Below are positions 7,840-63,266 of a stretch of DNA of 64,000 nt, piece after piece (the first letter of the stretch is position 1; every line of letters starts with the position of its first letter). The notes beneath the pieces are model-generated. The model was not told where the DNA came from. It did not search any database and worked only from the letters and a program-made list of their open reading frames with translations. The translations under genes were made by a program, and so were the position numbers. The stretch lies in assembly GCA_026770705.1 (NCBI GenBank), contig JANJGN010000557.1, positions 124,001 through 188,000 of the forward strand, given 5' to 3'. Source of the stretch: Isurus oxyrinchus (taxonomy: Eukaryota).

Positions 7840-8088
7840 TCAGTTTCGCTTGAATCTGATCTGTGCGTATTCCGTCTCCTCTTCCCTGTGGACAGACGCA
7901 TCACCACTGGGCACCCTGAAGACTTGGGGATTGGCGTAGAGAAGGTTGTCAGGATTGTCAGGGATTCCATGTCCAGCATCGCCTCCCACTGCACCTTCAG
8001 AGAGACCCCGGGGAGCTGGGGTCTCCCCCTCACTAGTTGTGTCTCTGGTTGTGTTCCGGGGCTCAGTAATCAGCACGTTCTGTTTACC
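7840..8088 (-). CDS. S1 final cytoplasmic exon with ITIM-like LLYANP and distal ITSM-like TEYAQI
   Basis: Acceptor tttctctgtag at 8090-8089; phase 0; 249 bp to TGA at 7842-7840; two-tyrosine layout like CD33-related Siglec tails. Confidence 0.88.
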   Translation of the reverse strand, partial: GKQNVLITEPRNTTRDTTSEGETPAPRGLSEGAVGGDAGHGIPDNPDNLLYANPQVFRVPSGDASVHREEETEYAQIRFKRN

Positions 8089-8236
8089 CTACAGAGAAAT
8101 GGAAACAGACGACATCCTCACATCATTTACTGGCACTGATAGGGTTAAATTATTGTGCAGCCTCGTTAGTGTCAGTCGTGGCTCAGTGGGTTTAACTGTC
8201 CTTCCCATGTCTTATGAAAGAAACCACCTAAGGCAT

Positions 8237-8812
8237 GTGCAGTGCTCCCTCAGTACTGACCCTCCGACAGTGCAGTGCTCCCTCAGTACTGACCCTCCGA
8301 CTGTGCAGCACTCCCTCAGTACTGACCCTCCGACAGTGCAGCACTCCCTCAGTACTGACCCTCCGACTGTGCAGCACTTCCTCAGTACTGACCCTCCGAC
8401 AGTGCAGCGCTCCCTCAGTACTGACTCTCCGGCAGTGCAGCACTCCCTCAGTACTGACCCTCCGACAGTGCAGCACTCCCTCAGTACTGACCCTCCGACA
8501 GTGCAGTGCTCCCTCAGTACTGACCCTCCGACAGTGCAGCACTCCCTCAGTACTGACCCTCCGACAGTGCAGCACTCCCTCAGTACTGACCCTCCGACTG
8601 TGCAGCACTTCCTCAGTACTGACCCTCCGACAGTGCAGCGCTCCCTCAGTACTGACCCTCCGGCAGTGCAGCACTCCCTCAGTACTGACCCTCCGACAGT
8701 GCAGCACTCCCTCAGTACTGACCCTCCGGCAGTGCAGTACTCCCTCAGTACTGACACTCCGGCAGTGCAGCACTCCCTCAGTACTGACCCTCTGTCAGTC
8801 CCGCACTCCCTC
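8237..8812 (+). repeat. 33-bp minisatellite array (about 17 units) in the last intron of S1
   Basis: Unit CAGTACTGACCCTCCGACAGTGCAGCACTCCCT; produces spurious repetitive ORFs. Confidence 0.95.
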
Positions 8813-8941
8813 GGTAATGGCTCTGGCGAGTGACGGCTTGGATTCTGCACACAGGTGCCTGGTGTGAGGCTCAATAATATGAACCTTGTAATCAGAGAGA
8901 GGATTAGAGAGAGAGATAGAGATGAAGGGACAGAGACAGAG

Positions 8942-9833: not shown

Positions 9834-9915
9834 CTGGTGATTCACAGAGAGTGGACTGGGGGTCAATGCAATATCACTGGTCCCTGAAACTCTCTCCTCC
9901 ATCGCTGTCTTTCTC
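9834..9915 (-). CDS. S1 first cytoplasmic exon (K)RKTAMEERVSGTSDIALTPSPLSVNHQ
   Basis: Acceptor ttatttcag, donor GTACAG; 82 bp, phase 2 to phase 0, fits both neighbouring exons. Confidence 0.82.
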
Positions 9916-11022: not shown

Positions 11023-11119
11023 TTTCTCACACAGATGAAGATGAAGATTCCAGCCAGGAAAACACTCAACATGATCCCAGCCGTGAACAATCCTACTGTC
11101 CATTTACTGGAGTCTCTAC
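11023..11119 (-). CDS. S1 transmembrane exon (G)RDSSKWTVGLFTAGIMLSVFLAGIFIFICVRK, uncharged TM
   Basis: Acceptor tttttacag at 11121-11120, donor GTAAGT at 11022; 97 bp, phase 1 to phase 2; about 24 hydrophobic residues followed by RK stop-transfer; too short for the ORF track. Confidence 0.88.
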
Positions 11120-13624: not shown

Positions 13625-13921
13625 CTTGCACAGTTAGTACGAGGGTCCGCTCCGATGAAACAGATGGATATCTCACTCTGCAGCTGAGATTGTGTCCGTG
13701 GTGTTTGAGTGATGGGATCAGGGTCAGAACAGAAGTATAGGTCAGAGTGACACCATGCTGAGTTACAGTGTTTGAGACTGATCCAGGTACGTCAGTGGGA
13801 GTGTCCCAGGTTAAGACAGGTGCTGCTGTTCCATTGCACGTTGTGTTGAAGGTGCAGCTTACATCCACACGCTTTCCTGCAATAATTTCAGCAGGGAATA
13901 TCATGGGTTTATCTGTGAAAT
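13625..13921 (-). CDS. S1 C-set Ig exon (DFTDKPMIFPAEI...CTFNTTCNG...LSCRVRYP...LTVQ)
   Basis: 297 bp, AG/GT bounded, phase 1-1; B-strand Cys, extra interdomain Cys, Trp and F-strand Cys as in Siglec domain 2. Confidence 0.92.
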
Positions 13922-14292: not shown

Positions 14293-14658
14293 CAGAAACG
14301 TGAAGCTGGGTTACAGGGTAATAGTTATGTCTCGGACCATTGTCAAATTCTATCCTGAAAAAATAAGGTCCTGCATCTTCCCGTGTGATGTTGTTTATAA
14401 TCAGAGAACAGTCGCCATCTTTCAGGTCTCCAGACAGTCGGGTCCGATGGTGGAACCGTGGTAACTCGTGACTGTGATCCTTGGAGTGAAAGGCTATAGA
14501 CGATGTTTCCCGTTCCTCATTATTAAACCAGACTCCACCTCGCGGTTGGTTTTCCAGACACGATGGATAACTGTAATGACACGGAATCTGTACACACGAA
14601 CCTTCCTGCACTGTCACCTCTCGTGGAGTGTCACCTTTCCACTCTTGTGAGGGTTCAT
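14293..14658 (-). CDS. S1 V-set exon V2 (DEPSQEWKG...CVQIPC...YFFRIEF...QLHVS)
   Basis: 366 bp open, phase 1-1; Siglec signatures: CVxxPC, DCSL, essential Arg in YFFRIE. Confidence 0.92.
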
Positions 14659-14714
14659 CTGGGGAGAGAAATATCAATATTTAACTCTGAATGGTTTGTG
14701 GATCCACTGAACCC

Positions 14715-15545
14715 GATATTTACAGATGAGGCTGAATTGGGGGGATGGTCAATACTGAGGAGAATGGCAACAAATTATATTGTCAGGAAGAATAGAAAAA
14801 CAGGATATTATTTAAATGGAGACAGGCTGCAGAATGCAGTACAGAGGGATCTGGGTGTCCTGGTACATGAATCACAGAAAGTCAGCATTCAGGAACAGCA
14901 CGGAATGAGGAAGGCAAGTGGAATGTTGGCCTTTATTGCAAAGGGATGGAGTATAAAAGGAGGGAAGTCTTGCAACAGCTGCACAGGGTGCGATTGTATC
15001 AGGAGCAGTGTGTACAGTTCTGGTCTCCTTACTTAGGGAGGGATAGACTCTGCATTGGAGGCAGTTCAGAGAAGCTTCACTGGGCTGATTCCTGGGATTA
15101 AAGGGTTTGTCCTGTGAGGAAATGTTGAGCAGGTTGGGCCTGTATCCATTGGAGTTTAGAAGAATGAGGGGTGACCTTATTGAAACATATCCGATTCCGA
15201 GGGGGCTTGACAGGGTGGATGCTGGGAGGATGTTTCCCCCTCGTGGGGGAATCTAGAACCAGGGAGCACAGTTTCGGAATGAGGGCTCCCCCATTTAAGA
15301 CTGAGATGAGGAGGAATTTCCTCTCTCAGAGGGGCGCTAGCCTGTGGAATTCTCTTCCCCAGAGAGCAGTGGAGGCTGGGCCATTGAACAGACTCAAGGC
15401 TGAGTGAGGCAGGTTTTTGATCGACAAGGGAGTCAAGGGTTTGGGGGACAGGCAGGAAAATGGAGTTAAGGCCACAACCAGATCAGTGAGAGCAGGCTCG
15501 AGGGGCTGAATGGCCTGCTCCTGTCCCTATTTCTTATGTTCCTAC
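14715..15545 (+). mobile_element. 5'-truncated CR1 LINE 3' end between the two V exons
   Basis: QRDLGVLVHESQKVS and RRNFLSQRGASLWNSLPQRAVEA; terminal GGGCTGAATGGCCT motif. Confidence 0.85.
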
Positions 15546-16099
15546 ATTCTTACCTTCTTAAAATATTAAAGCTGCAGAATAAACATGCAAGTGACTGACC
15601 CGCTCGACCCACCTTCCATCTGGGGGTCCCATGGGGAGGACCCTTCCTGAGACAGATCCACCAGCCAACATGGTCTGGATCCGAGCACAGGAGACACGGG
15701 GGGGGGAGTGACTAACAGGCTCCTTGTGACAGGCCCCGTCTGTCCAATGGCTGGCTTTCAGCTGCCAAGGCCAGAGTGGTCCTTGCTAAAACCGGCTCAG
15801 GACAGGCCAGGACCCCTGTGCAGACCCCCTCCAGCGCTGCAGCCTCTGTACAAACCCCTCATGCGCTTGTGGAGAGACACAAACAAGGCTGCACATTACC
15901 GAGGAGAATCCCTTCTACGGACTAAGGGCCTGACTCATCACCTTAAACTGCGCAAATGAGGAGGCTCTCGCTCGGTATCGGGGCTTGGCATTCGCTCAGT
16001 AAAAATATTCAAATGACATTTTGGTCAGAAATCTAAGGAGGTTGTACATTCCCTCAAAAATAAGACTCGAGCTGGGGTCACGGGTCAAAGGGCAACAAC

Positions 16100-18050
16100 T
16101 TATATTTACACAACAACTTTAATATGACAAATCACCCCAAGGTGCTACACAAGAGTGTCATAAAACAAAGTATGTCACCCAGACACATGTGGAGATATTA
16201 GCAACAGCTGGCCAGAAGAGGTCGGTGTTTTGGAGAGACAGAGAGAAAGAGAAAAAGAGACAGAGACAGAGAGAGAGAGAGAGAGTTGGAGAGGTTTCGG
16301 GTGGGAATTCCAGAGCTTATGGTCCCAGGCAGCTGAAGGCACGGCCGCCAATTTTGGAGCGATAGCATCCGGTGATGGTCAAGAGTTTGGAATTGGAGGA
16401 GCGCAGTGATCCCGGGGGGGTTGTAGGTGCTGTAGTTTGTGCAGAGGCTGCAGAGAGGCTACAAATTAGGAAAATTTGGAGAGGCTGTAGGAGTTCACAG
16501 AGCTAGGGAGGGTTGTAGAGTATGCAGGAGGTTACAGGGATAGGGAGGGTTGTAGGGGCTGGAGGAGTTACAGTGAAAGGGGGGTGGGTGTAGGGACTGG
16601 TGGATGTTACAGGGTAAGGGAGGCATTAGGGGCATGAGTAGGTTACAGAGACAGGGGGTTTGGAGGGACTGGAGAAATCTACAGTGAAAGGGAGGCTTTA
16701 GGGGATAAAGATGGTGACAGAGATAGGGAGGGTGGATGGGAATGGGAAATGTTATGGAGATAGGGGGTTTGTAGGTACAGGATGGGGTTATAGAGATTGG
16801 GAGTTTTATAGGGACTGGAGGAGGTTACAGAGATAGAGAGTGCTGTAGAGACTGGAGGACGTTACAGAGATAGGGGTTGTTGCACCGGTTGGAGAAGGTT
16901 ACAGAGAAATGGACCGTTGTTGGAGCTGGAAGAGGTTTATGAGGGAGGGGTGGTTATAGGGACTGAAATAATTTACAGAGATTGGGAGTGTTGTAGGGGC
17001 TGGAGGAGGTTACAGAGATAGGGTGGGTTGTAGGGGCTGGAGGTGGAAGAGGAGATTACAGGGATAATGAGGAAACAAAGATGAAAATTTGGACATTGAG
17101 ACTTTGCTTGACCAGGAGCCAGTCTCGGTCATCGAGCAGAGCGGGTGATAAGGGAACGGGACTTGGTGTGAGTAAGGACTTGGTCAGCAGTTTTGGATGG
17201 CCTCAAGTTTATGGAGTATGGAGCGTGTGTTGGAACAGTCGAGTCTGGAGGTAATGAAGGCGTGGATGAGGGTTTCAGCAGCAGATGAGCTGAGACAGGG
17301 TGATGTTGTGCGATGTTACGGAGGTGGAAATAGACGGTGTTAGTGAGGGCGCAGATATGAGGCCGGAAGCTCATCTCAGGATCAAATGGGACAACAAAGC
17401 TGTGAACAGATTGGCTTCAATCTCAGAGAGCTGCCAGGGAGAGGAATGGAGTTGGTAGCGAGGGAACAGAGTTTGGAGCGGGGAATGAAGACAATGGCTT
17501 CAGTCTTCCCAATATTTAATTGGAGGGAATTTCTGCCCATCCAGTACTGGATGTCGGATAAGCAGCCTGATAATTTAGCAGCAGTGGAGGAGTCGAGAGA
17601 GGTGGTGGTGAGGTAGAGCTGGGGATCCTCAGTGGACAGGTGAAAACTAACACTGTTCAGATGATGCTGCAAAGCCATTGCAAGTGATTCTCTGGCTACG
17701 ATGAGATGGATAAGAATAGAGCCAGGGGAGAGCAGTCCCACCCAGCTGGACGACAGTGGAGAGGTGTTGGAGGAGGATGGTGTGGTCGAGCGTGTCAAAG
17801 GCTGCAGACAGATCGAGAAGGACGAGGAGGGAAAGTTGACCTTTGTCACAGTCACACAGGATGCCATTTGTGACCTTGATAAGAGCTGTTTCAGCACAGT
17901 GGCTGGGGTGGGAACCTGATTGGAGGGATTCAAACATGGAGTTCCGGGAAAGATGGGAACGGATTCGGGAGATGGAAACACGTTCAAGGACTTTGGAGGT
18001 GAAAGAGAGGCTGGAGATGGGACAGGAGATTACACAGACAGTGTAAGGGG
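16100..18050 (-). mobile_element. Degraded L2-type LINE (RT region and 3' tail) with internal G-rich about 32-bp tandem repeat at 16420-17060
   Basis: QSGSHPSHCAETALIKVTNGIL, LLDLSAAFDTLDH and CLSDIQYWM..N.LQLNIGKTEAI motifs. Confidence 0.85.
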
Positions 18051-18301
18051 TGGAAGGTGTAGTGGGGAGGAGACACTTCACTCAGGGGGCAGGTGTCATC
18101 ACCCCTCAGCTCGGTTTACTTTACAGCTATGATGTGGATTCAATCACACACAATAAGCTCATGGATCTCGGAGCAGAAATAGACAAATCATTAAAAATAG
18201 TGACGCTGGTTAACACGGCCAAAAAACAAGCAAATCAGACACTATTATTTCCCATTGAGTGTTGGATGTGAATTGTTGATTAATTATAACACAGCACTTA
18301 C

Positions 18302-18688
18302 CAGAAACATGAAGCTGGGTTTCAGGATAGTAGCTGTAACTATTGTTGCCGTCAAATTCTATTCTGAAATAATAATATCCTGCATCTTCCCATCTGATGT
18401 TGTTTATAATCAGGGAACAGTCGCCATCTTTCAGGTCTCCAGACAGCCGGGTCCGATGGTGGAACCATGTTAACTCGCGATTGTGATTCTTGGAGTGAAA
18501 TGCTATGATCCCTCTAGACCTTGTATTCCATGTATTCCATGTGTACCATATCACATACCAGATTCCGACACGTGCTCTCCCTACTAAACGTGCTGGATAA
18601 CTGTAATTACATGGAATCTGTACACACGAACCTTCCTGTGCTGTCACAAATCGTGGAGTGTTGCCTTTCCACTCTTGTGACAATCCAA
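18302..18688 (-). CDS. S1 V-set exon V1 (VGLSQEWKGN...WYTWNTWNT...YYYFRIEF...QLHVS)
   Basis: 387 bp open, phase 1-1, Siglec Cys pattern and essential Arg retained; most divergent V in the window. Confidence 0.9.
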
Positions 18689-21439: not shown

Positions 21440-23380
21440 GAAATTCCCCAGTTTGAACTGGGATGGAGCTGACCGACTATCTGAATTCAGAATGTTTAAA
21501 CAGCGTACAGAGCTCTGGTTTCCTGATTCAGGTGTGACTGAACCAGACGAAGAAGCCATAAAAATTCACCTCGCGATTGGGAATGAAGGTCTACACAGGC
21601 TGAACACATCAGCATTAACAGCAGAAGAGCGAAAGGATCCCCAATAGATATGTACGATATTGGAAGACAGGGTCAGAATCAGGTTAAACTCCATATTCAT
21701 CAACTAGAGTTTATGTCATTTCATCAGCCTACACAATCCACAGACCACTTCATCAGCCGATGTAGAGAAAAGGGTACGCACTGTGATTTCAAACACAGAG
21801 CCTGCAGACACAGTTGTTGAGTTGGCGATCGCATCCACTCCCATGGAGGCCTTCCAGAAAGATCTGCTAGATAAGACCAAAACCTATAGCATTGAAGAGC
21901 TACTCAAGGATGGACATAATTACGAAGTGATCCTCGCAGGTCAACGTAGCTTACAGGTCCTCAGTACAACAGCAATTGTTGACACACTCACTAGAACATC
22001 CAAACCTAGTGAGACGTGTGGAAGGTGTGGCCTTCTGCAGGCACCAAGGAAATGCCCAGCTTTCCACCAATCCTGCAAGGCTTTTGGCAGAAAGGGCCAT
22101 TGACAGCGGCAGGGCACTAGAGCAAAGGCTGATGCAGCTACAAAGAGCCGTGGGCTGATCCAAACAGACCCTACACAACGGGGAACCTTCAAGCAATAAG
22201 AATGACCATCCGGTATCCCATCAGGAACTTAGACATGTGGTGACTGACAAACCAGGAAATGGCGATGATGTACACGACGAGACTAGGAGCGGTGATCGAT
22301 ATTCCACCTCTCACACATATCCTGACGTGGCTTGCCAATAAATAATGGATTGTTGTCTTTATTGATCTCTCTGGGCACATCAAATAAACTGAAAATCTCC
22401 CATAGGGGTTGGATTTTCTGGCCCCACCCACTGCCAGGATTGTCTGGTCTGGTCAAAAGCCAATGGATTTATTTTTGTCCCACTTTCACGTACTACCCTT
22501 TCACCTCAGTTCATGACATAACATTGAAATATGCAGAAAGTTTCAACAACATTGGCAGTTTCAAAGGAGCTCCAACATTACACCGGCTGGAGAATGCAAG
22601 TCTGTCAATTGATCTAGTCCATTTAGCACAACACAAATGCCAGCAGCTGCAAGAGGGAATGGTGAGATTCCACACTACAGAAACTGAGGAAGCATCTTTG
22701 AAGTATCTCCTGATTCAACTTGACCTTATTGGGATGAGCAAGGCATCTCCCGGGGAGTCATTTCTAAAGACAGGCAGGGCATCATACTGGAATCTTTGTG
22801 ATCGGATATTCTTCAACAACTTGGCAGTGGGAAATGGTGGGGACAGCCTGTCACGGTTAGAAAATGAGGGGCTCATTGGCAGGTGTCAGTACTGTCCACA
22901 TGTGTGTCCATCTCAGGCTGTTGGCTGCCAGAGTCCTTACAAGGCTTTGAGATCACTTACAACATTTTGACTGTGACTCTCAGCACTCCACTGTGCCTGC
23001 TCTTGGACAATGTCCTTTACAGCGCATCAAAGGGAGGGCCTGCTGAACCTGCAATGTGAAAAACTGCCCAGGGATATGTCCAATCCAGCAGGAGAAATCC
23101 AACCTGGACAATCACTACCTTATCAATTTACTCTTCATCATAAGCAAAGTGATAAAGGTGTAATCGACATTAAGAGGCATTGACTCAACAATAACCTGCT
23201 CATCCAGCATGGTGGTAGTGCCACACAACACAATGGAGGGTATCCTCAGTGAAAGGACGGGACTTCATCTCCAAGGTTTCTGTTCAGAACCAGGGTCCTA
23301 TGGAGTCATTACACACAAAGGCTCAGCGGTGAGGCCTAACCAAGGAGAAATCAGATCCATTCCCGCTCCTCAATCACCTT
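21440..23380 (+). mobile_element. Degraded Gypsy-type internal region (gag with zinc knuckle; integrase C-terminal remnant)
   Basis: NWDGADRLSEFRMFKQR...LAIGNEGL; CGRCG...CPAFHQSCKAFGRKGH knuckle; GSYGVITHKGSAVRPN. Confidence 0.65.
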
Positions 23381-23404
23381 ACAGTCTTGTTGCATGGAGT
23401 CATC

Positions 23405-23553
23405 GGGCTGAATTTTCCCGTTGGCGAGCAGGGGGTGGGGCCTGCTCAGTGACACTATGATGATGCGATTTTACATCAGGAGGAAACCCTGACATCATCC
23501 TGCCTCATTTAAATATTCAGACCCACCCCCCCGACAGGCAGGAAATTCAGCCC
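23405..23553. mobile_element. Short non-autonomous DNA transposon (MITE), same family as 45722-46358
   Basis: TIRs GGGCTGAATTTTCC...GGAAATTCAGCCC. Confidence 0.65.
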
Positions 23554-23554
23554 A

Positions 23555-26350
23555 TAGAGTCATAGATTCACAGGGTTCTACAGCACAGTAAAAGGCCCTT
23601 TGGCCCATCGAATCTGCGTCGGTCAAACAAGTACCTAATTATTCTAATCCCATTAATGCACTGGGCCCAAAGCCTTGTATGCGATGGCATCACAAGTGCA
23701 CATCCAAATACTTCTTAAATGTTATGAGGGTTTCTGCCTCTCCCACCCTTTCAGGCAGTGAGTTCCAGATTCAATCTATGCAACATCCTGGTAAATCTCC
23801 TCTGCACCGTCTCTAGGGCAATCACATCCTTCCTATAATGTGGGTTCCAGAACTGCACGCAATATTCTAGCTGTGGCCTAACCAGTGTTCTATACAGTTC
23901 CAGCATAACCTCCCTGCTCTTATATTCTATCTCTCGGCTAATAAAGGCAAGTATTCCATATGCCTTCTTAACCACCTTATCCACCTGTCCCACAACTTTA
24001 AGGGAACGGTGGACATGCACACCAAGGTCCCTCTGATCCTTGTTACTTTCCAGGGTCCTACCATTCATTGTCTATTCCTGTGCCTTGTTTATCCTGCCCA
24101 AGTGCATCACCTCACACTTATCCAGGTTAAATTCCCTTTGGCACTGATCAGCCCATCTGACCAGCCCCTCTATATCCCCCTGAAATCTAAGGCTATCCTC
24201 CTCATTATTTACCACCCCATCAATTTCCATATCATCCGCGAACTCACTGATCAACCTTCCTACATTCAAGTTTAGACCGTTTATATATACCACAAACAGC
24301 AAGGGACCCAACACCGATCCCTGTGGAACCCCACTGGACACAGGCATCCAGTCACAAAAACACCCCTCGACCATCACCCTCTACTTCCTGGCACTCAGCC
24401 AATTCTTGATCCAATTTGCCAAATTCCCGGATCCCATGGGCTCTTACTTTCGTTTACAGTCTCCCATGCGGGACCTTATCAAAAGCCTTGCTGAAGTCCA
24501 AGTTGACTATGTCAAATTCATTGCCCTCATCTACACAATTGGTCACCTCTTCAAAAAATTCAATCAAACTGGTCAGACATGACCTCCCCTTAACAAAACC
24601 ATGCTGACTGTCCTTGATTAATCCCTGCCTCTCCAAGTGTAGATTAATTCTGTCCCTCAGAATTGCTTCCAATAGTTTCCCCACCACTGAGGTTAGATTG
24701 ACTGGCCTGTTGTTCCCTGGTTTATCCCTTCCTCGCTTCTTGAATAACGGTACCACATTGGCTGTCCTCCAGTCCTCTGGTACCTCTCCTCTGGCCAGAG
24801 ATGTATTGAAAATTATTGCCAGCACCCCTGCTATCTCCTCCTTTGCCTCACTCAACAGCCTGAGATACATTTCATCCGGGCCTGCAGATATATCTACGTT
24901 TGAGACTGCCAGACCACTTAGAACCTCGTTCATTTCTATTCTAATTTCTTTAACTATATCACAGTCCTTCTGCCTGATTTCCAAACCCTCATTGCCCCTC
25001 TCACTTGTGAACACTGACACAAAGTGTTCATTTAGAATCCTACCTACGTCTTCCGGCTCCACACACAAACTACCAATATGGTCCTTAATGGGCCTTAATC
25101 TTTCCCTAGTTATCCTCTTACTCTTAATGTACTTGTAAAATAACTTTGGATTTTCCTTCATTTTTCCTGCTAATGTTTCTTCATGCCCCCTTTTTCCTCT
25201 ACTAATTTTCTTTTTAAGGTCCCCCCTACACATTCTGTACTCTTCTAAGGCTTCCACTGTTTTGAGCCCTCGGTATCTGCCATAAGCCTCCCTTTTTCTC
25301 TTTATCCAATCCTGTAAATCTCTCGACATCCAGGATTCCCTGGATTTGTTGGTCCCACCCTTTGCCTTTACTGGAATATGTTGGCCCTGTACTCTCCCCA
25401 CTTCCTTCCTGAATGAGTCCCATTGCTCTGACGCAGATTTCCCTAAAGGTAGCTGCTCCCAGTTCCACTCTGGCCAAATCATATTTGATCTTATTAAAAT
25501 CAGCCTTTCCCCAATTGAGAACTCAGATTTCTGGCCCATCCTTGTTCTTTTCCATAACAACCTAGAATCTAATGGAATGATGATCACTATCTGCACAATG
25601 CTCCCCCACTGATACGTCTACCACTTGCCTGGTTACATTCCTTAAAATTTACTCCAGGACCGACCCCTCTCTTGTAGGATCTTCTATGTACTGGCTTAAA
25701 AATCTCTCCTGGATGCATTTTAACAATTCTGCCCCCTCTAAAACTATCACACTATGACTAACCCAGTTATTGTTGGGGAAGGTGAAAAGCCCCACCATTA
25801 CAACCCGATTATTTTTATACTTCTCTGAATGTTGCCTTTGTATCTGCAATTCTATTTCTCTGAGTGTCATTGGGCCTGTAGAACACTCTCAGCAAGCTGA
25901 TTGCTCCTTATTTGCTTTTAGGTTCTACCCATATGGCTTCATTTGAGGAGCCCCCTAAGGTGTCTTCCCTCCTCACTGCAATAACTGATTCCTTGATCAA
26001 TCTTGCAATACCCCCTCCTCTTTTACCTCCTTCCCTGTCTTGCCAGAAGACCCTGTATCCTGTAATATTGAGCTGCCAATCCTGCCCCTCTCTCAACCAT
26101 GTCTCTGTGACAGCAATGACATCATACATCCATGTGTTATTTGTGACCTCAACTCATCTGCTTTATTCGTCAAGACTCCTTGCATTAAAATAAATACAAT
26201 CCAACTTTGCCACGCTATCTTGTGCCTTAACTGGCCAATAATTTCTCTGCCTTCCAGGTTCACTTGCTCTCTCTTCTAATTTTGGCTGTGCATCTCCCTC
26301 TGCTGAACCTCCTCTCGGGATCCCATCCCCTGCCATGTTAGTTTAAAACC
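23555..26350 (-). mobile_element. CR1 LINE, near-complete degraded ORF2 (AP endonuclease + RT)
   Basis: YDVIAVTETWL, VPEDWRTANVVPLFKK, SQHGFVKGRSCLTSL, LDFSKAFDKVPH, SGVPQGSVLGPLLF, FADD; frameshifted. Confidence 0.95.
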
Positions 26351-28816
26351 TCCCCAGTTGCATCAAGGGCAAAATGCCAATTGAAACCAGGGAGAACATC
26401 CAAGAATGACAATCCCACAGATCACTGTGAGCATTTAAAGACACCTCCAGACAAGGTTACTACCACAAGATCTGGGCGTAAGTGCAGATTACCTCTACTC
26501 TTTAGAGACTCAAATATTCAACAAATCTATACTGTTATCTAATTGTCAATAAAATTGAAAATGATACCAGAAACCTCTTGTTCCCTGTCCTTCTCAAAGA
26601 TCCATCCCTGCAGCTGGAGCCTTAAGAGTTATTGATGTGGGGCTTAATTTATCAGATTGTCGAATGATCGGGAACAAAAGGAAGCCATTTGGCTCATCGA
26701 GCCTGTGCTGGGCCTTTGAAATATCTGTCCAATTAGTCCCACTCTCACCTCTGCTCTCTCCTCCACAGCCCTGCAAAATGTCCTCTTCAAGTATTTATCC
26801 AGTTCCCCTTCTGAAAGTTCCTGTTGAATCTGCTTCCACCGCCCTTTCAGGCAGTGAGTCAATGGTCTCTCTCTGAGCTGCAAAGTGCTAATGTTCTGTG
26901 AAATTTAAACTCTGCAGCAGGTCAGAGACAATTATGATAACTCAGAATATTTGACAGTTCTACACACAGACAGCTTTGCCTCCCTTGTCTCTTTCAGTTA
27001 TCTTGCTCCCTTATTGAAGTATCTAGCATTGTGAGAATGGACAGGAAGAGTGACACTGAACAGCCTGTCTATTCTAGGAGCTGCTGTGTTGTCTTCATGG
27101 GAAATTCTGACTAAAATCAGCAAAAGACACGAAGTTTCAGGCCATTGTTATCCGAGTCCTAACATCAGGATAGACCTCATCCCCCAGTTTTTATCCCTGA
27201 TTTTCTATTCAGCCGATCGCTGCCCTGTCACTCACTGACCTACACTAACTCTCAGTCCAGCAATGACTCAAATTTCAAATTCTCATCATTGATTTCTTAC
27301 CCCACCATCCCCCCTCTACACTCTCTATCACTGTAACCTCCTCCAACCCTAAAAACCTCTGAGATCTCTGCTCTCCTCCAATTCTGCTGTCAGACAGGGA
27401 GCCAGTGTGTATCAGTAAGCACAGAGGTGATGGGTGAATGGGACTTGGTGTGAGTTTGTACACTGGCTCACTGGCTCAATCGGGCAGGATTGAGATGGAC
27501 TCCCCCACGGACTAACACCCCCCGCTTAATAAACAGTTCCAATCTTTACCCAGAGAGAGGGGAGAATGTGGAACTCGCTCCCACAGGGAGTGGTTGAGGT
27601 GAACAGTATCGATGTATTTAAGGGGCAGGAGGGTCGGTAACCAGAGGGACACAGATTGACGAACTGGAGGGGGAGATGAGGAGAATTTGTTTTGACAGAG
27701 CGAGTTGTTGTGATCTGGAAGGTGCTGCCTGAAAGGGAGGTGGAAGCAGATCCAATAAGAACTTTCAAAAGGGAAATTGGATAAACACTTGAAGGAGGAA
27801 GATGGGGGCAAAGTGGAGTGGTGGTTAGTGGATCTGATGGGATAGAACTTTGAAAGACCTGGCACAGTCTCAATGGGCTGAATGGCCTCCTCCTGTGCTG
27901 TATCATTCTCCGCTTCCATGATCTCTCCCCCAGTCAGTAACCACTCCAGATCCCTCTTGAAGGTGACAGAGAAACAGCAACCACCACACCCACTGACAGC
28001 ACATTCCCGAGGATCCCTACTCTCTGGGAAAAGATGAACTCCCCAACATCCAGCCTATTCCTGCTTCCCAGAGAGTGTAAACCCTTCAGGGAGGCACTGA
28101 GGAAGTTTTCAATAAAATGACATCAAATCTACCGTTTGAGAAATAATTGAATTCCGATGAACTCACAGCTTGTGTAGCAAACTGGGAAGTAGAGTTGCTG
28201 GGAAAGCTGGGAAACACAAGGATTAAGGGCTACAATGCCACCACTGGTGGGTGGCTGTAACTACACCGTGACGTTTACATAGGCAGTCATCATTACAAAC
28301 AGGGGCATTGCACATAATGGGAATTATGTGCACGGAAATAGTGAGAACACTATGTAAGCTTTTCATCAGCAGGAATTCCCTTCCTAAACCTCTCCAACTC
28401 TCTCTTACTCTCAGATACACAAAGAAAATCACACAGAATCAGATAAGGAAGAGTTGGGTTGGTGATTCGTCAAAGGGTTAGGTTTCAGGAAGCTTCTTAA
28501 AGGGAGAGAGAGAGTTGGAGATGCAGAGAGTATCTGTGAGTGTCTCTATGCATCTGAGTGTCTGTAATAGTAATTTCCATATTCTTCCATAAATATGAAT
28601 GGGAACACAAATCCCAGAATTCAGGCCAACTCTCCAGTGCAGTACTGAGGGAGGTCAGGTAACCCATGAGGGAGTGAGTGTTAGTGTTTGTGTGTGAGTG
28701 TGTCTTTGTGTGTGTTCATATATGTGTGTCTGCACGTGTCTATTTAGGTGTGTATGTTCGATGGTGTTTGTGTCGTGTTCGAATCTGAGAGAGATGTTGA
28801 AGTCTGTGTAACTCAC

Positions 28817-29292: not shown

Positions 29293-29589
29293 CTTGCACA
29301 GTTAGTACGAGGGTCCGCTCCGATGAAACAGATGGATATCTCACTCTGCAGCTGAGATTGTGTCCGTGGTGTTTGAGTGATGGGATCAGGGTCAGAACAG
29401 AAGTATAGGTCAGAGTGACACCATGCTGAGTTACAGTGTTTGAGACTGATCCAGGTACGTCAGTGGGAGTGTCCCAGGTTAAGACAGGTGCTGCTGTTCC
29501 ATTGCACGTTGTGTTGAAGGTGCAGCTTACATCCACACGCTTTCCTGCAATAATTTCAGCAGGGAATATCGTGGGTTTATCTGTGAAAT
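29293..29589 (-). CDS. S2 C-set Ig exon
   Basis: 297 bp open, phase 1-1, donor GTAATT. Confidence 0.88.
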
Positions 29590-30448: not shown

Positions 30449-30817
30449 CAGAAACGTGAAGCTGGGTTACAGGGTAATAGTTATGGCTCGGACCATTGTC
30501 AAATTCTATTCTGAAAAAATAAGGTCCTGCATCTTCCCGTGTGATGTTGTTTATAATCAGGGAACAGTCGCCATCTTTCAGGTCTCCAGACAGCCGGGTC
30601 CGATGGCGGAACCGTGGTAACTCGTGACTGTGATCCTTGGAGTGAAAGGCAATGGGAGCCCAGGGAATCTGTGTCTCATTATTAAACCAGAGTCCACCTC
30701 GTGGTTGATTTTCCAAATGTGCTGGATAACTGTAATGACATGGAATCTGTACACACGAACCTTCCTGCGCTGTCACCTCTCGTGGAGTGTCACCTTTCCA
30801 CTCTTGTGACAGTCCAA
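30449..30817 (-). CDS. S2 V-set exon, intact, essential Arg present
   Basis: 369 bp open, AG/GT bounded, phase 1-1. Confidence 0.9.
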
Positions 30818-31677: not shown

Positions 31678-31717
31678 CTTGGAGAAGTGACAGGAGGAAG
31701 TAAGATTTCCCGATCAT
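31678..31717 (-). CDS. S2 leader exon MIGKSYFLLSLLQ
   Basis: 40 bp; joins V to give signal peptide MIGKSYFLLSLLQVGLS followed by QEW. Confidence 0.85.
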
Positions 31718-32134: not shown

Positions 32135-32310
32135 GTGGAAGTGAATTCCAATCGTTCCGTTACTTACCCAGGACCTGTCCGACTGCTCGCCTGGGGAGGA
32201 ACTGCCCACACGCTCTGCTTGGGCTGAATGACCTCTTCCTGTGCTGCTCCCTCTGTGTGTTTAATGAGAAAGGGTTGATGTGTCTCTGGGAGTCAAAATG
32301 GGGAAGTGGG
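32135..32310 (-). promoter_or_regulatory. S2 promoter and non-coding exon 1
   Basis: Donor GTAAGT at 32167; PU.1-like AAAATGGGGAAGTG at about 32295-32308. Confidence 0.55.
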
Positions 32311-32529
32311 TAATCAGTGAGAAGATCGAGGATGTTTTGTGCTCTCAGCAAAACGTTTACCATGTGTGATCTGTCAGCTCATATTTGGGCAGCTGTAGTC
32401 ATCAAGCTTCTCCATTGGCTCCGTGGGATTAGACCCCTCCCCCTCATCTCAGAGCTGAAGCGCAGGCGATAGACTTCCCAATACAGGTCTCTGGCCGTAT
32501 GATACATATTGACAATCCCTGATATCATT

Positions 32530-35003
32530 ACTGAAGGAGTGCTGCACTGTCAGGGGTATAGTACTGAGAGAGTGCTGCACTGTGTGAGGGTCAGTACTGA
32601 GTGAGTGCTGCACTATCAGAAGGTCAGTAATGTGGGATTGCTGCACTGTCAGAGGGCCAGTAGTGAAGGATTGCTGCAATGTCGGAGGGTCAGTACTGAG
32701 GGAGTGCTGCACTGTCAGAGGGACAGTTATGTGGGAGTGCTGCACTGTCAGAGGGTCAGTAATGTGGGAGTGCTGCACTGGAAGAGGGTCATTAATAAGG
32801 GAGTGCTTCACTGTCAGGAGTATAGTACTGAGGGAGTGCTGCACTGTGGGAAGGTCAGTACTGAGCGAGTGCTGCACTGTTAGTGGGGTCAGTACTGAGG
32901 GTCTGCTGCACTATCAGAGGGTCAGTAATGTGGGGGTGCTGCACTGTCAGAGGGCCAGTAGTGAAGGAATGCTGCAATGTTGGAGGATCAGTACTGAGGG
33001 AGTGCTGCACTGTCAGAAGGTCAGTAATGTGGGAGTGCTGCACTGTCAGAGGGACAGTAATGTGGGAGTGCTGCACTGTCAGAGGGTCAGTAATGAGGGA
33101 GTGCTGAACTGTCAGCGGGTCTGTACTGAGTGAGATTTGCACAGTCGGAGGGTCAGTATTGAGGGGGTGCCGGACTGTGGGAGGGTTAGTACTGAGGGAG
33201 AGCGGAGTGTGAGAATATATCCTTTCATGGCAAAGTTTAACTGGAATTTATTTAAACAGAGATTCTTGTACTCTGTGTTATTGCTAAAGAAAGGATATGA
33301 GGAACTAAGTCTTGTTCCCCTCAGCCTAAAAATAATTTTCACGGATTTCAATGATTTAGCATTGAAACCTCCCTATTTGGGCATCAGTCTTGATTTAAAC
33401 AACTCGCACAGCACTTCGGGAGAGTGACTACTGAGGGTGTGCTGCACTGTGGGAGGGTGAGTACTGAGGGAGTGCTGCATTGTGGGAGGGAGAGTACTGA
33501 GGGAGTGCTGCACTGTGGGAGGGTGAGTACTGATGGAGTGCTGCACTGTGGGAGGGTGAGTACTGAGGGAGTGCTGCACTGTGGGAGGGTGAGTACTGAG
33601 GGAGTGCTGCACTGTGGGAGGGTGAGTACTGAGGGTGTGCTGCACTGTGGGAGGGTGAGTACTGAGGGAGTGCTGCACTGTGGGAGGGTGAGTACTGAGG
33701 GAATGCTGCACTGTGGGAGGGTGAGTACTGAGGGAGTGCTGCACTGTGGGAGGGTGAGTACTGATGGAGTTCTGCACTGTGGGAGGGTGAGTACTGAGGG
33801 AGTGCTGCACTGTGGGAGGGTGAGTACTGATGGAGTTCTGCACTGTGGGAGGGTGAGTACTGAGGGAGTGCTGCACTGTGGGAGGGTCAGTACTGAGGGT
33901 GTGCTGCACTGTGGGAGGGTGAGTACTGAGGGAGTGCTGCACTGCGGGAGGGGGAGTACTGATGGAGTTCTGCACTGGGGGAGGGTGAGTACTGAGCGCA
34001 GGCTGCACTGGGGGAGGGTGAGTACTGAGGGAGTGCTGCACTGTGGGAGGGTGAGTACTGATGGAGTTCTGCACAGTGGGAGGGTGAGTACTGAGGGTGT
34101 GCTGCACTGTGGGAGGGTGAGTACTGAGGGAGTGCTGCACTGTGGGAGGGTGAGTACTGAGGGAGTGCTGCACTGTGGGAGGGTGAGTACTGAGGGTGTG
34201 CTGCACTGTGGGAGGGTGAGTACTGAGGGTGTGCTGCACTGTGGGAGGGGGAGTACTGAGGGAGTGCTGCACTGTGGCAGGGTGAGTACTGATGGAGTGC
34301 TGCACTTTGGGAGGGTGAGTACTGAGGATGTGCTGCACTGTGGGAGGGTGAGTACTGAGGGAGTGCTGCACTTTGGGAGGGTGAGTACTGATGGAGTGCT
34401 GCAATGTGGGAGGGTGAGGACTAAGGGTGTGCTGCACTGTGGGAGGGTGAGTACTGAGGGAGTGCTGCACTTTGGGAGGGTGAGTACTGATGGAGTGCTG
34501 CACTGTGGGAGGGTGAGTACTGAGGGTGTGCTGCACTGTGGGAGGGTGAGTACTGAGGGTGTGCTGCACTGTGGGAGGGTGAGTACTGAGGGAGTGCTGT
34601 ACTTTGGGAGGGTGAGTACTGAGGGAGTACTGCACTGTGGGAGGGAGAGTACTGAGGGAGTGCTGCACTGTGGGGGTGAGAATACTGAGGGACAGCTGCA
34701 TAGTGGGAGTTTGAATACTGAGGGAATGCTGCCCTGTCAGAGGGTCTGAACCGAGGGAGTGCTGAACTGTTGGAAAGTCATTAGTGATGGAGGGTTACAG
34801 TATCAGAGGGTCAATATTCAGGGAGTGTTGCACTGTCAGATTGTCAGCCATGAGGGAATCCTGCACGGTCAGAAGGTCAATGCTGACGGGGTGAAGCACT
34901 TGAAAAGGGTCAATAATGAGGTAGTGCAGCACTGTCAGAGAGACAGTAATGAGGGAGCGCTGCACTGACGGAGGGTCAGCACTGAGGAAACGCTGCACTG
35001 TCA
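32530..35003 (-). repeat. 33-bp minisatellite arrays between S3 and S2 (homogeneous variant core 33424-34750)
   Basis: Core unit GGGAGGGTGAGTACTGAGGGAGTGCTGCACTGT; degenerate flanks; non-repeat spacer about 33200-33420. Confidence 0.95.
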
Positions 35004-35719
35004 GTTCTGAGTGTGGTCTGCGCTGTCCTAAGTGCATTCTAGGCACTGCCCAAGATTCCGCCTGATGTCTGTGTAACAACAACATCATGTACACGTCAAG
35101 AATAATTCTCACTGTGTCTGTGCAGCAAGACAGCTTTGGAATGGCACCACCACTGACAGGAGTGTGCAACTACAATGTGACATGTTTACATTGGAAATTT
35201 CTATTATAAAGATGGGCACAGGAATTCATATGATAGAGAAAATGTGACAACAAGAAGCTCTGTCTTTGAGGCAAGAATTTGGCAGCAAAATAAGAATTTT
35301 AATCGATAAATATTTACAGAACAGGCTGAACATTTTAACCACTTGAGTAAATCAATGTAATTTTATTCATAACCCAAATGCTTCTTACAATCTATCGCAG
35401 CATGAAAAAGGTGCAGCATTCAGAAAGCACATTCCAATCAGAGAACAGAGTTTAGCAACGTCACATTTCTGTTCATTCCTATTCGACCATGTTGGCTGCA
35501 CACAGCCAGACAATGCCGTGGTTATGATGTGTCCACACAGCAGGACTGGGGAGCACCAGGTATAAGGAAAAGTTTCAGCTTGCTGAGGAGAAGAAGGAGA
35601 ATCTCTCGTTCCAGGTTTCTCTCCGTACATTAAGAAGCAGGCATGCCGATGTTTCATTGCACTCTGTCTGCTGATGGGAGTCCGCTTGGAAATTGCTGTT
35701 TGTGCTGATGGAAAGAATA

Positions 35720-41640: not shown

Positions 41641-41877
41641 GGATCAAAGTGACAGAGCAGCTCATGTTTTGAGATGTTGGTGAACTGTTAACGCTTTGTG
41701 TCCTGACCCTGTGGTGATATTTCTGCTCACTGATGGACAGTCATTAACCAGGAGTTTCTCCTGTGGGTCAGTGGGTTTCACACCCGAACTCAGGGAGTCA
41801 GTATGTTGTAGAATTTTCTGGGGTTCAAGACCCCATTCAGGAGATGCCTGCCCCACAGAGTAGACTGAAATTCCCCA

Positions 41878-42545
41878 GTGTCAGTACTGAGGGAGTGCTG
41901 CACTGTCAGAGGGTCAGGACTGAACGAGTGCTGCACTGTCAGAGGGTCAGTACTGAGGGAGTGCTACACTGTCAGAGGGACAGTACTGAGGGAGTGCTGC
42001 ACTGTCGGAGGGTCAGTACTGAGGGAGTGCTACACTGTCAGAGGGACAGTACTGAGGGAGTGCTGCACTTTCGGAGGATCAGTACTGAGGGAGTGCTACA
42101 CTGTCAGAGGGTCAGTATTGAGGGGGTGCTGCGCTCTCGGAAGGTCAGTACTGAGGGAGTGCTACACTGTTAGAGGGACAGTATTGAGGGAGTGCTAATC
42201 TGTCGGAGAGACAGTTTTGAGGGAGTGTTGCACTGTCAGAGGGACAGTACTGAGGAATTGTTGCACTGTTGGAGGGTCAGTACTGATGGAGTGCTGCACT
42301 GTCGGTGGGTCAGTCCTGAGGGTGTGCCGCACTGTCGGAGGGTCAGTACTGACGGAGTGTTGTACTGTTGGAGGGTCAGTACTGAGAGAGCGCTGCACTG
42401 TCAGAGGGTCAGTACTGAGGGAGTGCTGCACTGTCGGAGGGTCAGTACTGAGGGAGTGTTGTACTGTCAGAGGTTCAGTATTGAGGGCGTGCTGCACTGT
42501 CAGAGGGTCAGTACTGAGGGAGTGCTGCACTGTCAGGGGGTGAGT
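41878..42545 (-). repeat. 33-bp minisatellite array preceded by a tRNA-SINE-like head
   Basis: Direct repeats; B-box-like GGGTTCAAGACCCC at about 41821-41834. Confidence 0.9.
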
Positions 42546-43298
42546 ACATTGCGATTCCTGCTCTGCTCTATCAGCCCCTTGGCTGGACATAAAAGCCCCT
42601 ATGTTAATGTTCAAAAACTGTTATTAATTGTATTCTGGTCACCATTTTCTTTAAAAAACAGATTATCTGATTGTCATCAGAATACCTTTCTATGGGATCC
42701 GGCTGTGCGTCATCTAGACTGTTCCAGCGAATGTATAATGAAGGGTGTCCGTACTTACCTTGCACAGTTAGTACGAGGGTCCGCTCCGATGAAACAGATG
42801 GATATCTCACTCTGCAGCTGAGAGTGTGTCCGTGGTGTTTGAGTGATGGGATCAGGGTCAGAACAGAAGTATAGGTCAGAGTGACACCATGCTGAGTTAC
42901 AGTGTTTGAGACTGATCCACGTACGTCAGTGGGAGTATCCCAGGTTAAGACAGGTGCTGCTGTTCCATTGCACGTTGTGTTGAAGGTGCAGCTTACATCC
43001 ACACGCTTTCCTGCAATAATTTCAGCAGGGAATATCGTGGGTTTATCTGTGAAATCTAACAGACAGAGAATGGATCCTTTTAGAGAAATATAACGTGAAG
43101 CATCAGTTCAAATAGAAATCACAGCCTTAAGATTAGAGATAGATGGGAGTGGATGACCTGATAACATTGATGGACACATTCAATACATTTAATCATTGAT
43201 ATTAAAGTGAGTATTAGAGGTTGCTTTTGGACTGAATGGAAGCTATCACCAGGTTATTGAGAATCAGACTCTGCGTTATACTAAACTGTGTTTTATGT

Positions 43299-44022: not shown

Positions 44023-45721
44023 GTGTTATTATGTAAACGTCAGAGTTTGTGTTCATTCCCATTGAGTGTTGAATGTGAATTGTTGAGTAATTATAACACA
44101 GCACTTACCAGAAACGTGAAGCTGGGTTACAGGGTAATAGTTATGGCTCGGACCATTGTCAAATTTTATGCTGAAAAAATGAGGTCCTGCATCTTCCCGT
44201 CTGATGTTGTTTATAATCAGGGAACAGTCACCATCTTTCAGGTCTCCAGACAGCCGGGTCCGATGTTGGAACAGTGGTAACTCGCGATTATTATCCTTGG
44301 AGTGAAAGGCTATAAAGAATCTTATCAAGACTTTGTCATTAAATCAGATTCCAATTTGCAGTTGGTTTTCCAGACACGATGGGTAGCTGTAATGACATGG
44401 AATCTGTACACACGAATATTCCTGCGCTATCACCTCTCGTGGAGTGTCACCTTTCCACTCTTGTGACAGTCCAACTGGGGAGAGAAATATCAATATTTAA
44501 CTCTGGATGTTTTGTAGCTTCACTAGACTCGATATCCACCCCTTCCATCACTGGGGCACAGTGGCTGCAGTGTGGACCATCTACAGGACACACAAGGAAC
44601 TCCCCAAGTTTTCACAATGGATGGAAGAGAATCCTGGACACAGGAGTGGACAACTTCATTCTACATTGGCTCATGGTCCTCAGGACCCTGTTTAGTGAAG
44701 CCAGTCTTCCACCCAACACAGTGTCTACAAGATACACAGGGAAACTGTGTAAATATCTCATCTCTCTACACTGACGGTTTACCTTTCAGTTAATTCATTT
44801 CATTATGGTGAAACTGTGCAAGAAGTGTGAGGGCTGGACCCTCTGTCTATTCTGAATGCTGCTGTGATGTAATCATGGCCTCTCAGGGAATGGACTATTG
44901 GAGTTTATTCATCCCTGAATTTTGATTTTGAATTCCAGAGCTCGGGGCCCAGGCAGCTGAAGGCACGGCCGCCAATAATGGAATGATGGGAATCGGGGGA
45001 TGGTCAAGATGCTGGAATTGGAGGAGTGCAGAGATCTCGGAGGGTTGTAGGTACTGGAGGAGATTACAGAAATAGGGAGGGTTGTAATGGTGGACGAGGT
45101 TACAGAGAAAGGGAGGTTTGTAGGGGCTGGAGAAATTAACAGAGATAGCGAAGGATATAGGGGCTGGAGTTGGTTATAGAGTTAGGGAGAGTGGTAGGGG
45201 CTGGAGGAGGTTACTGAGATAGGGAGGATTGTAGGAGCAGGGCGAGGTTACAGAGGTAGGGAGTAATATATGTGCTGGAAGATGTTACAGGGATAGGGAG
45301 GTTGGTATGGGCTGGAGGAGGTAACATGGATAGGGAGAGTTGCAAAATTTTGGAGGGATTTCTACAGGATGACCTGGATTTTAATTTTCTGTTGCTGTCA
45401 GACAGGGAGTCAGTGTATATCAGTGATCACAGGGGTGATGGGTGAATGGGACTTGGTGTGAGTTTGTACACTGGCTCACTGCTGAATCGGTTCCCAATCA
45501 CAGCTCAATAAGAATGATCTTTTACAAAGACTATTAACCATAAATCTGTCCGAGCTGACGATGATATTACCTTGGAGAAGTGACAGGAGGAAGTAAGATC
45601 ATTGTCCACTCGCAGATATTTCATCAGCTTCTCACTCTCAAGCTGTGAAAGAGAAAGGAGTTAATGAGACCTCACCTCTTGTCCGACAGCTCTCCAGAGA
45701 TCAGAACTGCTTTTAGACAAT

Positions 45722-46358: not shown

Positions 46359-47019
46359 AATGTCTTCACAGACTAATTTGATTCTCTGTGGGATGATAGT
46401 TGCTCTGCAGAGAGTTACAAGGCTTTAAGAAAGAAAAACAATGAAAGACTTGCATTTCTATAGCACCTTTCACCACCTCAGGACGCCCCCAAGCTCATGT
46501 CTCTGCACTTCCCTCATCCCTTGAGCTAGAAAGATTTTCTGTACAACAGACTTGAGCCTCACACCCTGATCTCAATAATCAGTAGAAATCTTTCAAAGGC
46601 ATCAATCATTGGAATCTGTCTTTATTAAGTCACAACATCAACAAAGGACGGTGTTGGTCGTGGAAGTGAATTCCAATAGTTCCGTTACTTACCCAGGACC
46701 TGTCCGACTGCTCGCCTGGGGAGGAACTGCCCACACGCTCTGCTTTAGCTGAATGACCTCTTCCTGTGCTGCCCCCTCTGTGTATTTAATGAGAAAGTGT
46801 TGATGTGTCTCTGTGAGACAAAATGAGGAAGTAGTAAAGGAGTGAGTAAACAGGCATTAGGAATGAGTGCGTAATTTCACAATGCGTTACAACAGAATCA
46901 AACTGTTGGCAATTCATCATGACTCTGTGATCTTTCTGTTTGCTGTTTGTTAACTTCAAATTTCTACCATGGCTCTGAGGGTTTATATTTAAAAATGCTG
47001 TTGGAGGAGAAATACTAAG

Positions 47020-47727
47020 CATGTTCTGCACTGTCGGAGGGTCAGTATTGTTGGAGTGCTACCCTGTCAGAGGGTCAGTACTGAGGGAGTGCTGCACTGT
47101 TGGCGCGTCAGTATTGAGGTGTGCTGCACTGATGGAGGATAAGCAGCGAGGGAGTGCTGCTCTGTTTGAGGGACAGCTGTGAGGGAGTTCTGCACTGTCA
47201 GAGTGTTGGCACTGAGGGAGTGCTGCACTGTCGGCCGGTCAGAACTGAGGGAGTGCTGCACTGTTGGAGGGTCTAAACTGAGAGAGTGCTGCACCCGTTG
47301 GAGGGTCTGAACTGAGGGAGTGCTGCACTGCTGGAGGGTCTAAACTGAGGGAGTGCTGCAGTGTCGGAAGGTCTGAACTGAGGGAGTGCTGCACTGTTGG
47401 AAGGTATAAACTGAGGGAGTGCTGCACTGTCGGAGGGTCTGAACTGAGGGATTGCTGCACTGTAGGAGGGTCTAAACTGACGGAATGCTGCACTGTCGGA
47501 AGGTCTGAACTGAGGGAGTGCTGCACTGCTGGAGGGTCTGAACTGAGGGAGTGCTGCACTGTTGGAGGGTCTGAACTGAGGGAGTGCTGCACTGCTGGAG
47601 GGTCTAAACTGAGGGAGTGCTGCACTGTTGGAGGGTCTGAACTGAGGGAATGCTGCACTGCTGGAGGGTCTAAACTGAGGGAGTGCTGCACTGTTGGGGG
47701 GTCTGAACAGAGGGAGTGCTGCACTGT
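47020..47727 (-). repeat. 33-bp minisatellite array (TCTGAACTGAGG variant) between S5 and S4
   Basis: Direct repeats. Confidence 0.95.
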
Positions 47728-57712: not shown

Positions 57713-57889
57713 AAAGGAGTGAGTAAACAGGCAGTAGGAATGAGTGCTTCATACCACAAAGCGTTGCAACATAATCACACTTTTGACCTATTTATTGTGA
57801 CTCTGTGATGCTTCTCTTCTGTTGTTTGCTATTTGGTAACGTCAGTTTTCTACCATGGCTCCGAGGGTTAATATTTAATTGTGCTGTTG

Positions 57890-62646: not shown

Positions 62647-63266
62647 CTAACACACAGAGAATGGATCCTTTTAGAGAAATATAACGTGAAGCATCAGTTC
62701 AAATAGGAACCACAGTCCCACAAGAGAAAGCACATTTACAAGGATGATATCAGAACTGAGAGGTTACAATGATCATTAAAGAATTGTCTATTTTTACACT
62801 TGTTGAATCTCTGTCACTCAGATTAATACACTCTCACTCAGTGACCCTTGATTTGACCAGACTGGGTGAGGGTGGAGGAACAGCTCACAGCTCGGGGAGA
62901 GCAGACTCAGCATTTGGAAAAGGATATAGAGACACTGGAGAGGGTGGTAAAAAGCTTCACAAGGATGATCTTGTTTTGGTTTCAGATTTCCAGCATCCAC
63001 AGTATTCTGCTTTTAACTCCAATCTCTGGTCTGAGCCTCTTCTCTCATCCAGTGTTCTCAATTCACATGTCTCGGAGTGAACGTGTATTAAGCTGAGAGA
63101 CAGAAACACTACTGCCAAAGAGCAAGAAAATCTTTCCTGATCGTTGTAACCTCTCAGTTCTGATATCATCCTTGTAAAAGTGCTTTCTCTTGTGGGACTG
63201 TGATTTCTATTTGAACTGATGCTTCACGTTATATTTTTCTAAAAGGATCCATTCTCTGTCTGTTAG

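Follow-up and report, generated by a model that had tools for sequence, protein, structure and literature searches.

Tandem V-set exons and a candidate interdomain cysteine in a Siglec-like gene family of the shortfin mako shark

A stretch of 64,000 nucleotides from the shortfin mako shark Isurus oxyrinchus (hereafter the window; part of contig C557 in a genome of 4.98 Gb) carries on its minus strand a Siglec-like gene with two consecutive V-set exons, V18 and V14. These encode tandem Siglec-type V domains, and sequence comparison indicates that an extra cysteine in the BC loop of the inner domain probably bonds to the A'B cysteine of the preceding V domain. The V18–V14 gene belongs to a Siglec-like shark family that numbers hundreds of genes, each with 1–10 V exons in tandem. 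Positions without a contig name refer to the window (Table 1), and joints and codons of these minus-strand genes are read 5' to 3' from high to low coordinates.

The tandem V-set pair and its inner cysteine

The minus strand of the window contains six V-set, seven C2-set and five leader exons of the family (one leader degenerate), together with one uncharged transmembrane (TM) exon followed by a two-exon tail and two Arg-bearing TM exons with short tails; the best-matching named proteins are from Carcharodon and Cetorhinus (86–91% identity). Both V18 and V14 have AG/GTAAGT ends, are of phase 1-1 and are open without stops. The 3.6-kb intron separating them consists of repeats only, and searches with family exons (blastn and tblastn) detected neither a leader nor any C, additional C2 or TM exon in it. 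The F-strand Arg is kept in both exons and aligns to the Arg of Siglec-5, which agrees with the preliminary description of two intact V exons that both keep the essential Arg, with no leader or C exon between them. Both exons scored above the cut-off for Pfam V-set and Ig_CD22, all top PDB matches were Siglecs (E 2e-14), and a predicted V-set model resembled sialoadhesin (Z 18.5, root-mean-square deviation (rmsd) 1.8, 115 aligned residues); CD33, Siglec-5, -8, -10, MAG and sialoadhesin had similar scores against the shark V exons.

V14 differs from the other V exons of the window in two features, both pointed out in the preliminary description and both seen here. It starts with (D)EPS, while the other five V exons start with (V)GLS, the first residue coming from a split codon, and it has an additional Cys seven residues past the B-strand Cys (B+7). 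The latter had been likened to the Cys of the C exon; that Cys, at B+6, corresponds in the alignment to the Cys in the BC loop of MAG and CD33. By alignment to the same two proteins, the A'B Cys of the V exon and the BC-loop Cys of the next C2 exon are both present. The TM exon and two cytoplasmic exons follow in frame, and a type I membrane protein with a signalling tail is predicted. Of the two Tyr motifs in this tail, TEYAQI presumably fits the pattern of an immunoreceptor tyrosine-based switch or inhibitory motif (ITSM/ITIM-like). LLYANP departs at its last position from the canonical ITIM, as quoted in the available part of PMC7226832.

The distribution of the extra Cys was analyzed in 100 of the 102 V exons found, a V exon being counted as inner when it follows another V exon. 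The Cys was present in 53/54 inner and 2/46 non-inner V exons, and the two non-inner carriers, V44 and its copy, each contain a stop; the earlier caveat that a pseudogene V also has PSC thus applies to V44. Blocks annotated later, which are near-copies, gave 11/11 inner against 0/26 non-inner V exons. The association is more than chance. In a scan of all alignment columns, the Cys was the most position-linked residue (phi 0.97, next column 0.79) and exceeded the codons at the start of the exon, a result that speaks against its being merely linked to the upstream intron.

The start of the exon followed position less strictly. Starts of xEPS or xKPS type occurred in 37/54 inner and 0/46 other V exons, while 17/54 inner exons keep a VGLS-type start yet carry the Cys; the DEPS/xEPS start is inner-specific but dispensable, and the proposal that DEPS is an adaptation to a linker role is borne out only in part. 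Cleavage of the signal peptide would be expected after VGLS, and the xEPS start would be consistent with the signal-peptide end having been lost from an exon no longer behind a leader. Arg was kept in 49/50 intact inner and 27/36 intact first V exons. The first V exons are highly variable in their BC and CC' loops, with Arg lost in 9/36 intact exons, and the inner V exons are uniform.

The same rule was found in other sharks and rays. Among 113 elasmobranch proteins (156/167 V domains scored), the Cys was present in 38/49 inner and 1/107 other V domains, the only non-inner carrier being a gene model that starts at an inner-type V, and 27/31 tandem-V proteins had it, the carriers coming from 11 named species of sharks and rays. 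It was again the top column of the scan (phi 0.82, next 0.56) and exceeded the first codons.

It is unlikely that the Cys is a neutral mark of descent, with all inner V exons derived from a single ancient exon that had it by chance and the residue travelling with the upstream intron. Such an origin would account for the grouping of most inner exons on the exon tree, for the correlation of neighbouring residues with position in the genome (phi 0.65–0.79) and for the ease of the mutation, TGT being one step from CGT and TAT, two codons present at this place in first V exons. However, the first codons lie nearer the intron and correlate less than the Cys; the Cys is conserved across rays and four orders of sharks, with variation in the residues around it; and it is absent from 93/93 distinct first V domains of other species. 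On the tree, which was built with the Cys codon and the first 8 nt removed and gives no direction, the inner label needs five changes (three forced), as would fit shuffling of the rest of the exon.

The proposed interdomain disulfide and its alternatives

In ordinary Siglecs, the A'B Cys of the V domain bonds to a Cys in the BC loop of the C2 domain that follows (PMC5150538, PMC6669322, as far as their available text goes), C37–C165 of MAG being the canonical V–C2 bond (same part of PMC5150538), and isolated CD33 V domains with a free A'B Cys form stray inter-chain disulfide oligomers (same part of PMC6669322). A V domain placed behind another V would leave the preceding A'B Cys unpaired. Elasmobranch inner V exons may supply the missing partner at the corresponding domain end, and repetition of such an exon would produce a stapled chain V1-V2-...-Vn-C2. 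Arg is retained across the domains of the chain, which could act as a stiff extension and possibly as a multivalent binder of sialic acid, binding by inner domains being less sure. A broader picture is possible, though less likely than not: the Siglecs of sharks and rays would be rods of disulfide-linked V domains, about ten at most and all with Arg, giving each chain multivalent binding of sialic acid, and duplication of exons together with fusion by deletion would reshuffle chain length, a variable tip domain and an activating or inhibitory tail among hundreds of genes. A very large family of this kind in elasmobranchs, with as many as ten V domains per gene and a Cys dedicated to V-to-V bonding, would show a way of extending the Siglec architecture, offer a natural test of sialic acid binding by internal V domains and provide a model for stable multivalent lectin scaffolds.

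Two AlphaFold2 models bear on the geometry. For a V-V-C protein of Cetorhinus, the predicted local distance difference test (pLDDT) was 73.6 and the predicted template modelling score (pTM) 0.53, and its V2-C part had rmsd 3.6–4.8 to Siglec V–C2 pairs; for a V-V-TM protein the values were 67.2 and 0.48. The V1-V2 pair of the latter superposed on the crystal V–C2 pairs of CD33, Siglec-5 and Siglec-10 with rmsd 4.7–5.7 over 198–213 residues covering both domains, compared with 11.7–17 for non-Siglec two-domain proteins and 7.4 for JAML. The resemblance of the predicted V–V pose to the disulfide-linked V–C2 pose lends weak support to the bond. Pairing of the V14 Cys with the interdomain Cys of the first V, as first suggested, is argued for strongly by sequence comparison and weakly by modelling.

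Splicing was analyzed in four RNA runs (X2, X3, X6 and X7), which consist of assembled contigs, presumed RNA, 85–99% alike; their joints are informative for the family rather than for the V18–V14 copy, and they show presence, not absence. V-to-C splicing (13921/14293) was observed in 4/4 runs. V-to-V joints were found in X2 (14650/18302, with 22 letters on the short side) and in X3 (one to an AEPS start, with 13 loose letters, and one to a VGLS start), X2 and X3 being one sample. All leader-to-V joints listed for X2, X6 and X7 lead to VGLS-type starts and none to an xEPS start, with 32 loose ends lying beyond those listed. The tandem, non-exclusive use of V exons on which the preliminary description depended is supported at the family level by these V-to-V joints of one sample.

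These joints bear on whether the tandem V exons are alternative cassettes used one per transcript, as in Dscam. Each V exon is symmetric (phase 1-1) and can be left out with the frame preserved, and arrays of up to ten exist. We nevertheless regard cassette use as very unlikely, given the V-to-V joints in X2 and X3, the restriction of the listed leader joints to VGLS-type starts, and the near-identity of many array members, which leaves little to choose between. It is also quite improbable that the Cys has a function but a different bonding partner, such as a second receptor chain in dimers or oligomers. Such bonding is known from the isolated CD33 V domains mentioned above, and the V2 and V4 domains of rays have different extra Cys (B+17 to B+22) with no clear partner; but a role in dimers fails to explain why the Cys is confined to V domains behind a V, and V exons that follow a C exon lack it (14/14 V exons directly after the deletion junction described below).

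Several observations weigh against the intramolecular V-to-V bond. The gene copies are related, and the Cys counts are not independent events; one inner V exon of the genome (C52:669979) and 11/49 inner V domains of other species lack the Cys, five of the latter lacking any extra Cys, and tandem-V gene models of turtle and tree shrew have no compensating Cys. Three of the 11 lie within model P0001, which begins with a TM segment and tail and seems to combine more than one gene, and four come from rays and have another extra Cys instead. In C52:2743201–2756000, a copy with the same deletion junction, two V exons are followed directly by TM with no C exon, and the last A'B Cys would be unpaired. 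The models came without coordinates and give no Cys–Cys distance, pTM is 0.53 and 0.48, the fit to MAG is worse (rmsd 8.6–21), and the V–V pose may echo Siglec structures that the predictor already knows. The V-to-V joints come from a single sample, two of the three have only 13–22 letters on one side, and all belong to copies other than V18–V14; no V-to-V joint in X6 or X7, no DEPS joint and no C-to-V joint was present among those listed, beside which there are 32 further loose ends. In the ray proteins P0010 and P0011, both kinds of inner domain occur together: V2 and V4 lack the B+7 Cys and each have one extra Cys at B+17 to B+22, and V3 has B+7.

Leader loss and the predicted fusion gene

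V18, the V1 of the preliminary description, is not the N-terminal domain of this copy, because its own leader is deleted. A search with word size 7 between C29 and V18 and between V18 and V14 found no hidden leader, and a single 27-nt match to the 5' exon probe covered the probe only in part. In the closest annotated paralog (C52:149933–167000, 92–95% collinear), a leader is present 5.3 kb ahead of the V18-like exon. The deletion junction occurs 14 times in the genome. All V exons are in frame in 12/14 junction copies, against a genome background of 86/102; intactness is no higher than background and gives no evidence of selection. Two V exons follow the junction in 12 copies, and both tail types follow among the copies.

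Joining the nearest intact leader (31717) with V30, C29, V18, V14, C13, TM and the tail gives a protein of 727 amino acids without stops, in which nine exons join in frame at canonical sites and all 16 ectodomain cysteines would be pairable under the disulfide model. If expressed, this copy is predicted to encode V-C-V-V-C-TM-tail from the upstream leader. As a separate question, we consider it possible, though on balance doubtful, that this copy is a leaderless relic that is no longer expressed, in which case the rule for the family would still be real. The loss of leader and 5' exon, the 3.5-kb insertion in the intron, the lack of a C-to-V joint among those listed and the background level of intact copies would be expected of a relic. 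Against this, all nine exons still join correctly, the junction has spread to 14 places, and the deletion also deprived the upstream unit of its TM exon, so that it has no other membrane anchor.

The predicted fusion can be compared with the human SIGLEC14/5 fusion gene, in which a deletion between activating-type and inhibitory-type neighbours likewise placed an inhibitory tail under the upstream promoter (PMC4042635, available part). The human gene encodes plain Siglec-5, whereas the shark deletion is out of register and retains the upstream V-C, predicting the longer V-C-V-V-C.

Table 1. Coordinates of the V18–V14 gene and related features in the window
Feature	Position	Strand	Remarks
V18, outer exon of tandem V-set pair	18302..18688	-	387 nt; VGLS start; BC-loop Cys absent; A'B Cys codon 18626-18624; from sequence
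V14, inner V-set exon	14293..14658	-	366 nt; DEPS start; essential Arg codon 14356-14354; from sequence
V14 extra BC-loop Cys codon (B+7)	14558..14560	-	Proposed partner of V18 A'B Cys; from sequence and positional association; pairing putative
C13, C2-set exon	13625..13921	-	BC-loop Cys (B+6) codon 13838-13836, expected partner of V14 A'B Cys; 5' end from joint 13921/14293 (4/4 runs)
TM exon, uncharged type	11023..11119	-	
Cytoplasmic exon 1	9834..9915	-	
Cytoplasmic exon 2	7840..8088	-	Two Tyr motifs (LLYANP, TEYAQI) and stop
V44, leader-adjacent pseudogene V	44109..44474	-	PSC and TGA stop; exception to Cys rule
Deletion junction	27478..27481	-	4-nt microhomology; removed Arg-bearing TM exon of upstream unit and 5' exon and leader of V18 gene
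Retroelement-like insertion in intron before V18	22607..26169	.	About 3.5 kb; absent from paralog C52:149933-167000; taken by us to be a CR1 long interspersed nuclear element (LINE) from the look of its open reading frames
Nearest intact leader (signal peptide) exon, coding part	31678..31717	-	Leader-to-V joints in RNA contigs
Putative 5' non-coding exon	32168..32250	-	Found ahead of each leader; 5' end approximate
V30, intact leader-adjacent V exon	30449..30817	-	Predicted N-terminal domain of fused gene
C29, intact C2-set exon of upstream unit	29293..29589	-	

Comparison with other vertebrates and size of the family

According to the available part of PMC7876704, Siglec-XII has two V-set domains and all other Siglecs have one. 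Primate Siglec-12 (human Siglec-XII) resembles the shark genes in having two tandem V-set domains ahead of C2, TM and a tail with Tyr motifs (PMC7876704 and PMC12779560, in part). The parallel drawn in the preliminary description is sound for the tandem-V architecture (V18 and V14 here, 1–10 in relatives) but not for the Cys: Siglec-12 of the monkey Rhinopithecus (P0190) lacks a BC-loop Cys in V2 and has its extra V2 Cys at B+28, compared with B+7 in the shark. Unlike an arrangement with both V domains N-terminal, this copy predicts V-C-V-V-C. Both Arg are lost in human Siglec-XII, while the shark domains keep Arg, and sharks reach 4–10 V exons and hundreds of genes. The likeness to Siglec-12 is architectural and likely convergent, and the 'Siglec-12' names on shark database models are automatic labels.

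CD33, Siglec-5, Siglec-10 and MAG share with the shark domains the V-set Cys pattern, the F-strand Arg and the C2 BC-loop Cys; they differ in having a single V bonded to C2, while the shark V itself carries the acceptor Cys, at B+7 and not B+6. The polymeric Ig receptor, also a chain of V-type domains, gave the top Foldseek rows for the three-domain model, but identity is about 18%, rmsd is 16–21, and a match to the Siglec Arg/Cys pattern is not demonstrated. Among 19 more distant tandem-V proteins inspected (ten with names, all gene models), none has the B+7 Cys (0/19); one unnamed protein has a Cys at B+4 in V2. Inner V domains of Xenopus have gained an N-terminal Cys at B-17, and outer V domains of toad and gecko are without the A'B Cys, which is kept only beside C2. 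These patterns suggest several vertebrate solutions to one unpaired-Cys problem, with exceptions.

Fish have been said to lack inhibitory CD33-related Siglecs, a statement on teleosts (PMC7226832, available part). Sharks are not mentioned in the available parts of PMC13358205 and PMC7226832, that of PMC8455134 names Siglecs once, PMC7677710 gave no match to the terms looked for, and searches of open-access papers yielded no account of multi-V shark Siglecs.

In the mako genome, there are 707 exact matches to a 23-mer from the V core, 155 matches to the xEPS start (one control match), 277 to the Cys-type BC loop (one mismatch allowed) and 226 to the uncharged TM exon; DEPS is a minor start form (16 exact matches). 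Part of the copies may be haplotype duplicates. Annotation of about 1.06 Mb of contigs C557, C52 and C189 gave 48 V-exon runs: 24 with a single V exon, 16 with two, 2 with three, 1 each with four and five, 3 with seven and 1 with ten; the seven-V and ten-V arrays are from blocks chosen for array length, and blocks not so chosen gave 20, 16, 1, 1 and 1 runs of one to five V exons. Many array members are near-identical. In the longest array (C52:2280275–2299940), a single leader precedes ten V exons, of which the second is frameshifted, and C, C2, an uncharged TM exon and a tail come after them; the seven-V arrays are located at C52:1871385, C52:3539149 and C189:689534–704822. Three V-core matches lie on large contigs beyond the main cluster contigs (C25:36073498, C34:15138188 and C34:15163826).

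Stalk length also varies by C2 duplication, as in a single-V gene with eleven tandem extra C2 exons (C557:41922–52794). The other type of TM exon, which encodes an Arg within the membrane segment and a short tail that lacks Tyr, is found on the minus strand of the window at 36353 and 49157 and is likely the activating partner of the Tyr-motif receptors. A shared-tail, protocadherin-like interpretation of the leader-V-C units was dropped, because the units have their own Arg-bearing TM exons. Orphan pairs of 5' exon and leader without a V exon occur in tandem at 1732–2298, 455–545 and many places of C52, and duplicated tail exons (cy1-cy2-cy1-cy2) were found in the same contexts. A local inverted duplication of about 1 kb (62349–63564) has placed two C2 exons on opposite strands, and 33-bp minisatellite arrays with long repetitive open frames are present in intronic and intergenic regions (8200–8830, 32450–35010, 41860–42560, 46990–47740 and 57880–60410).

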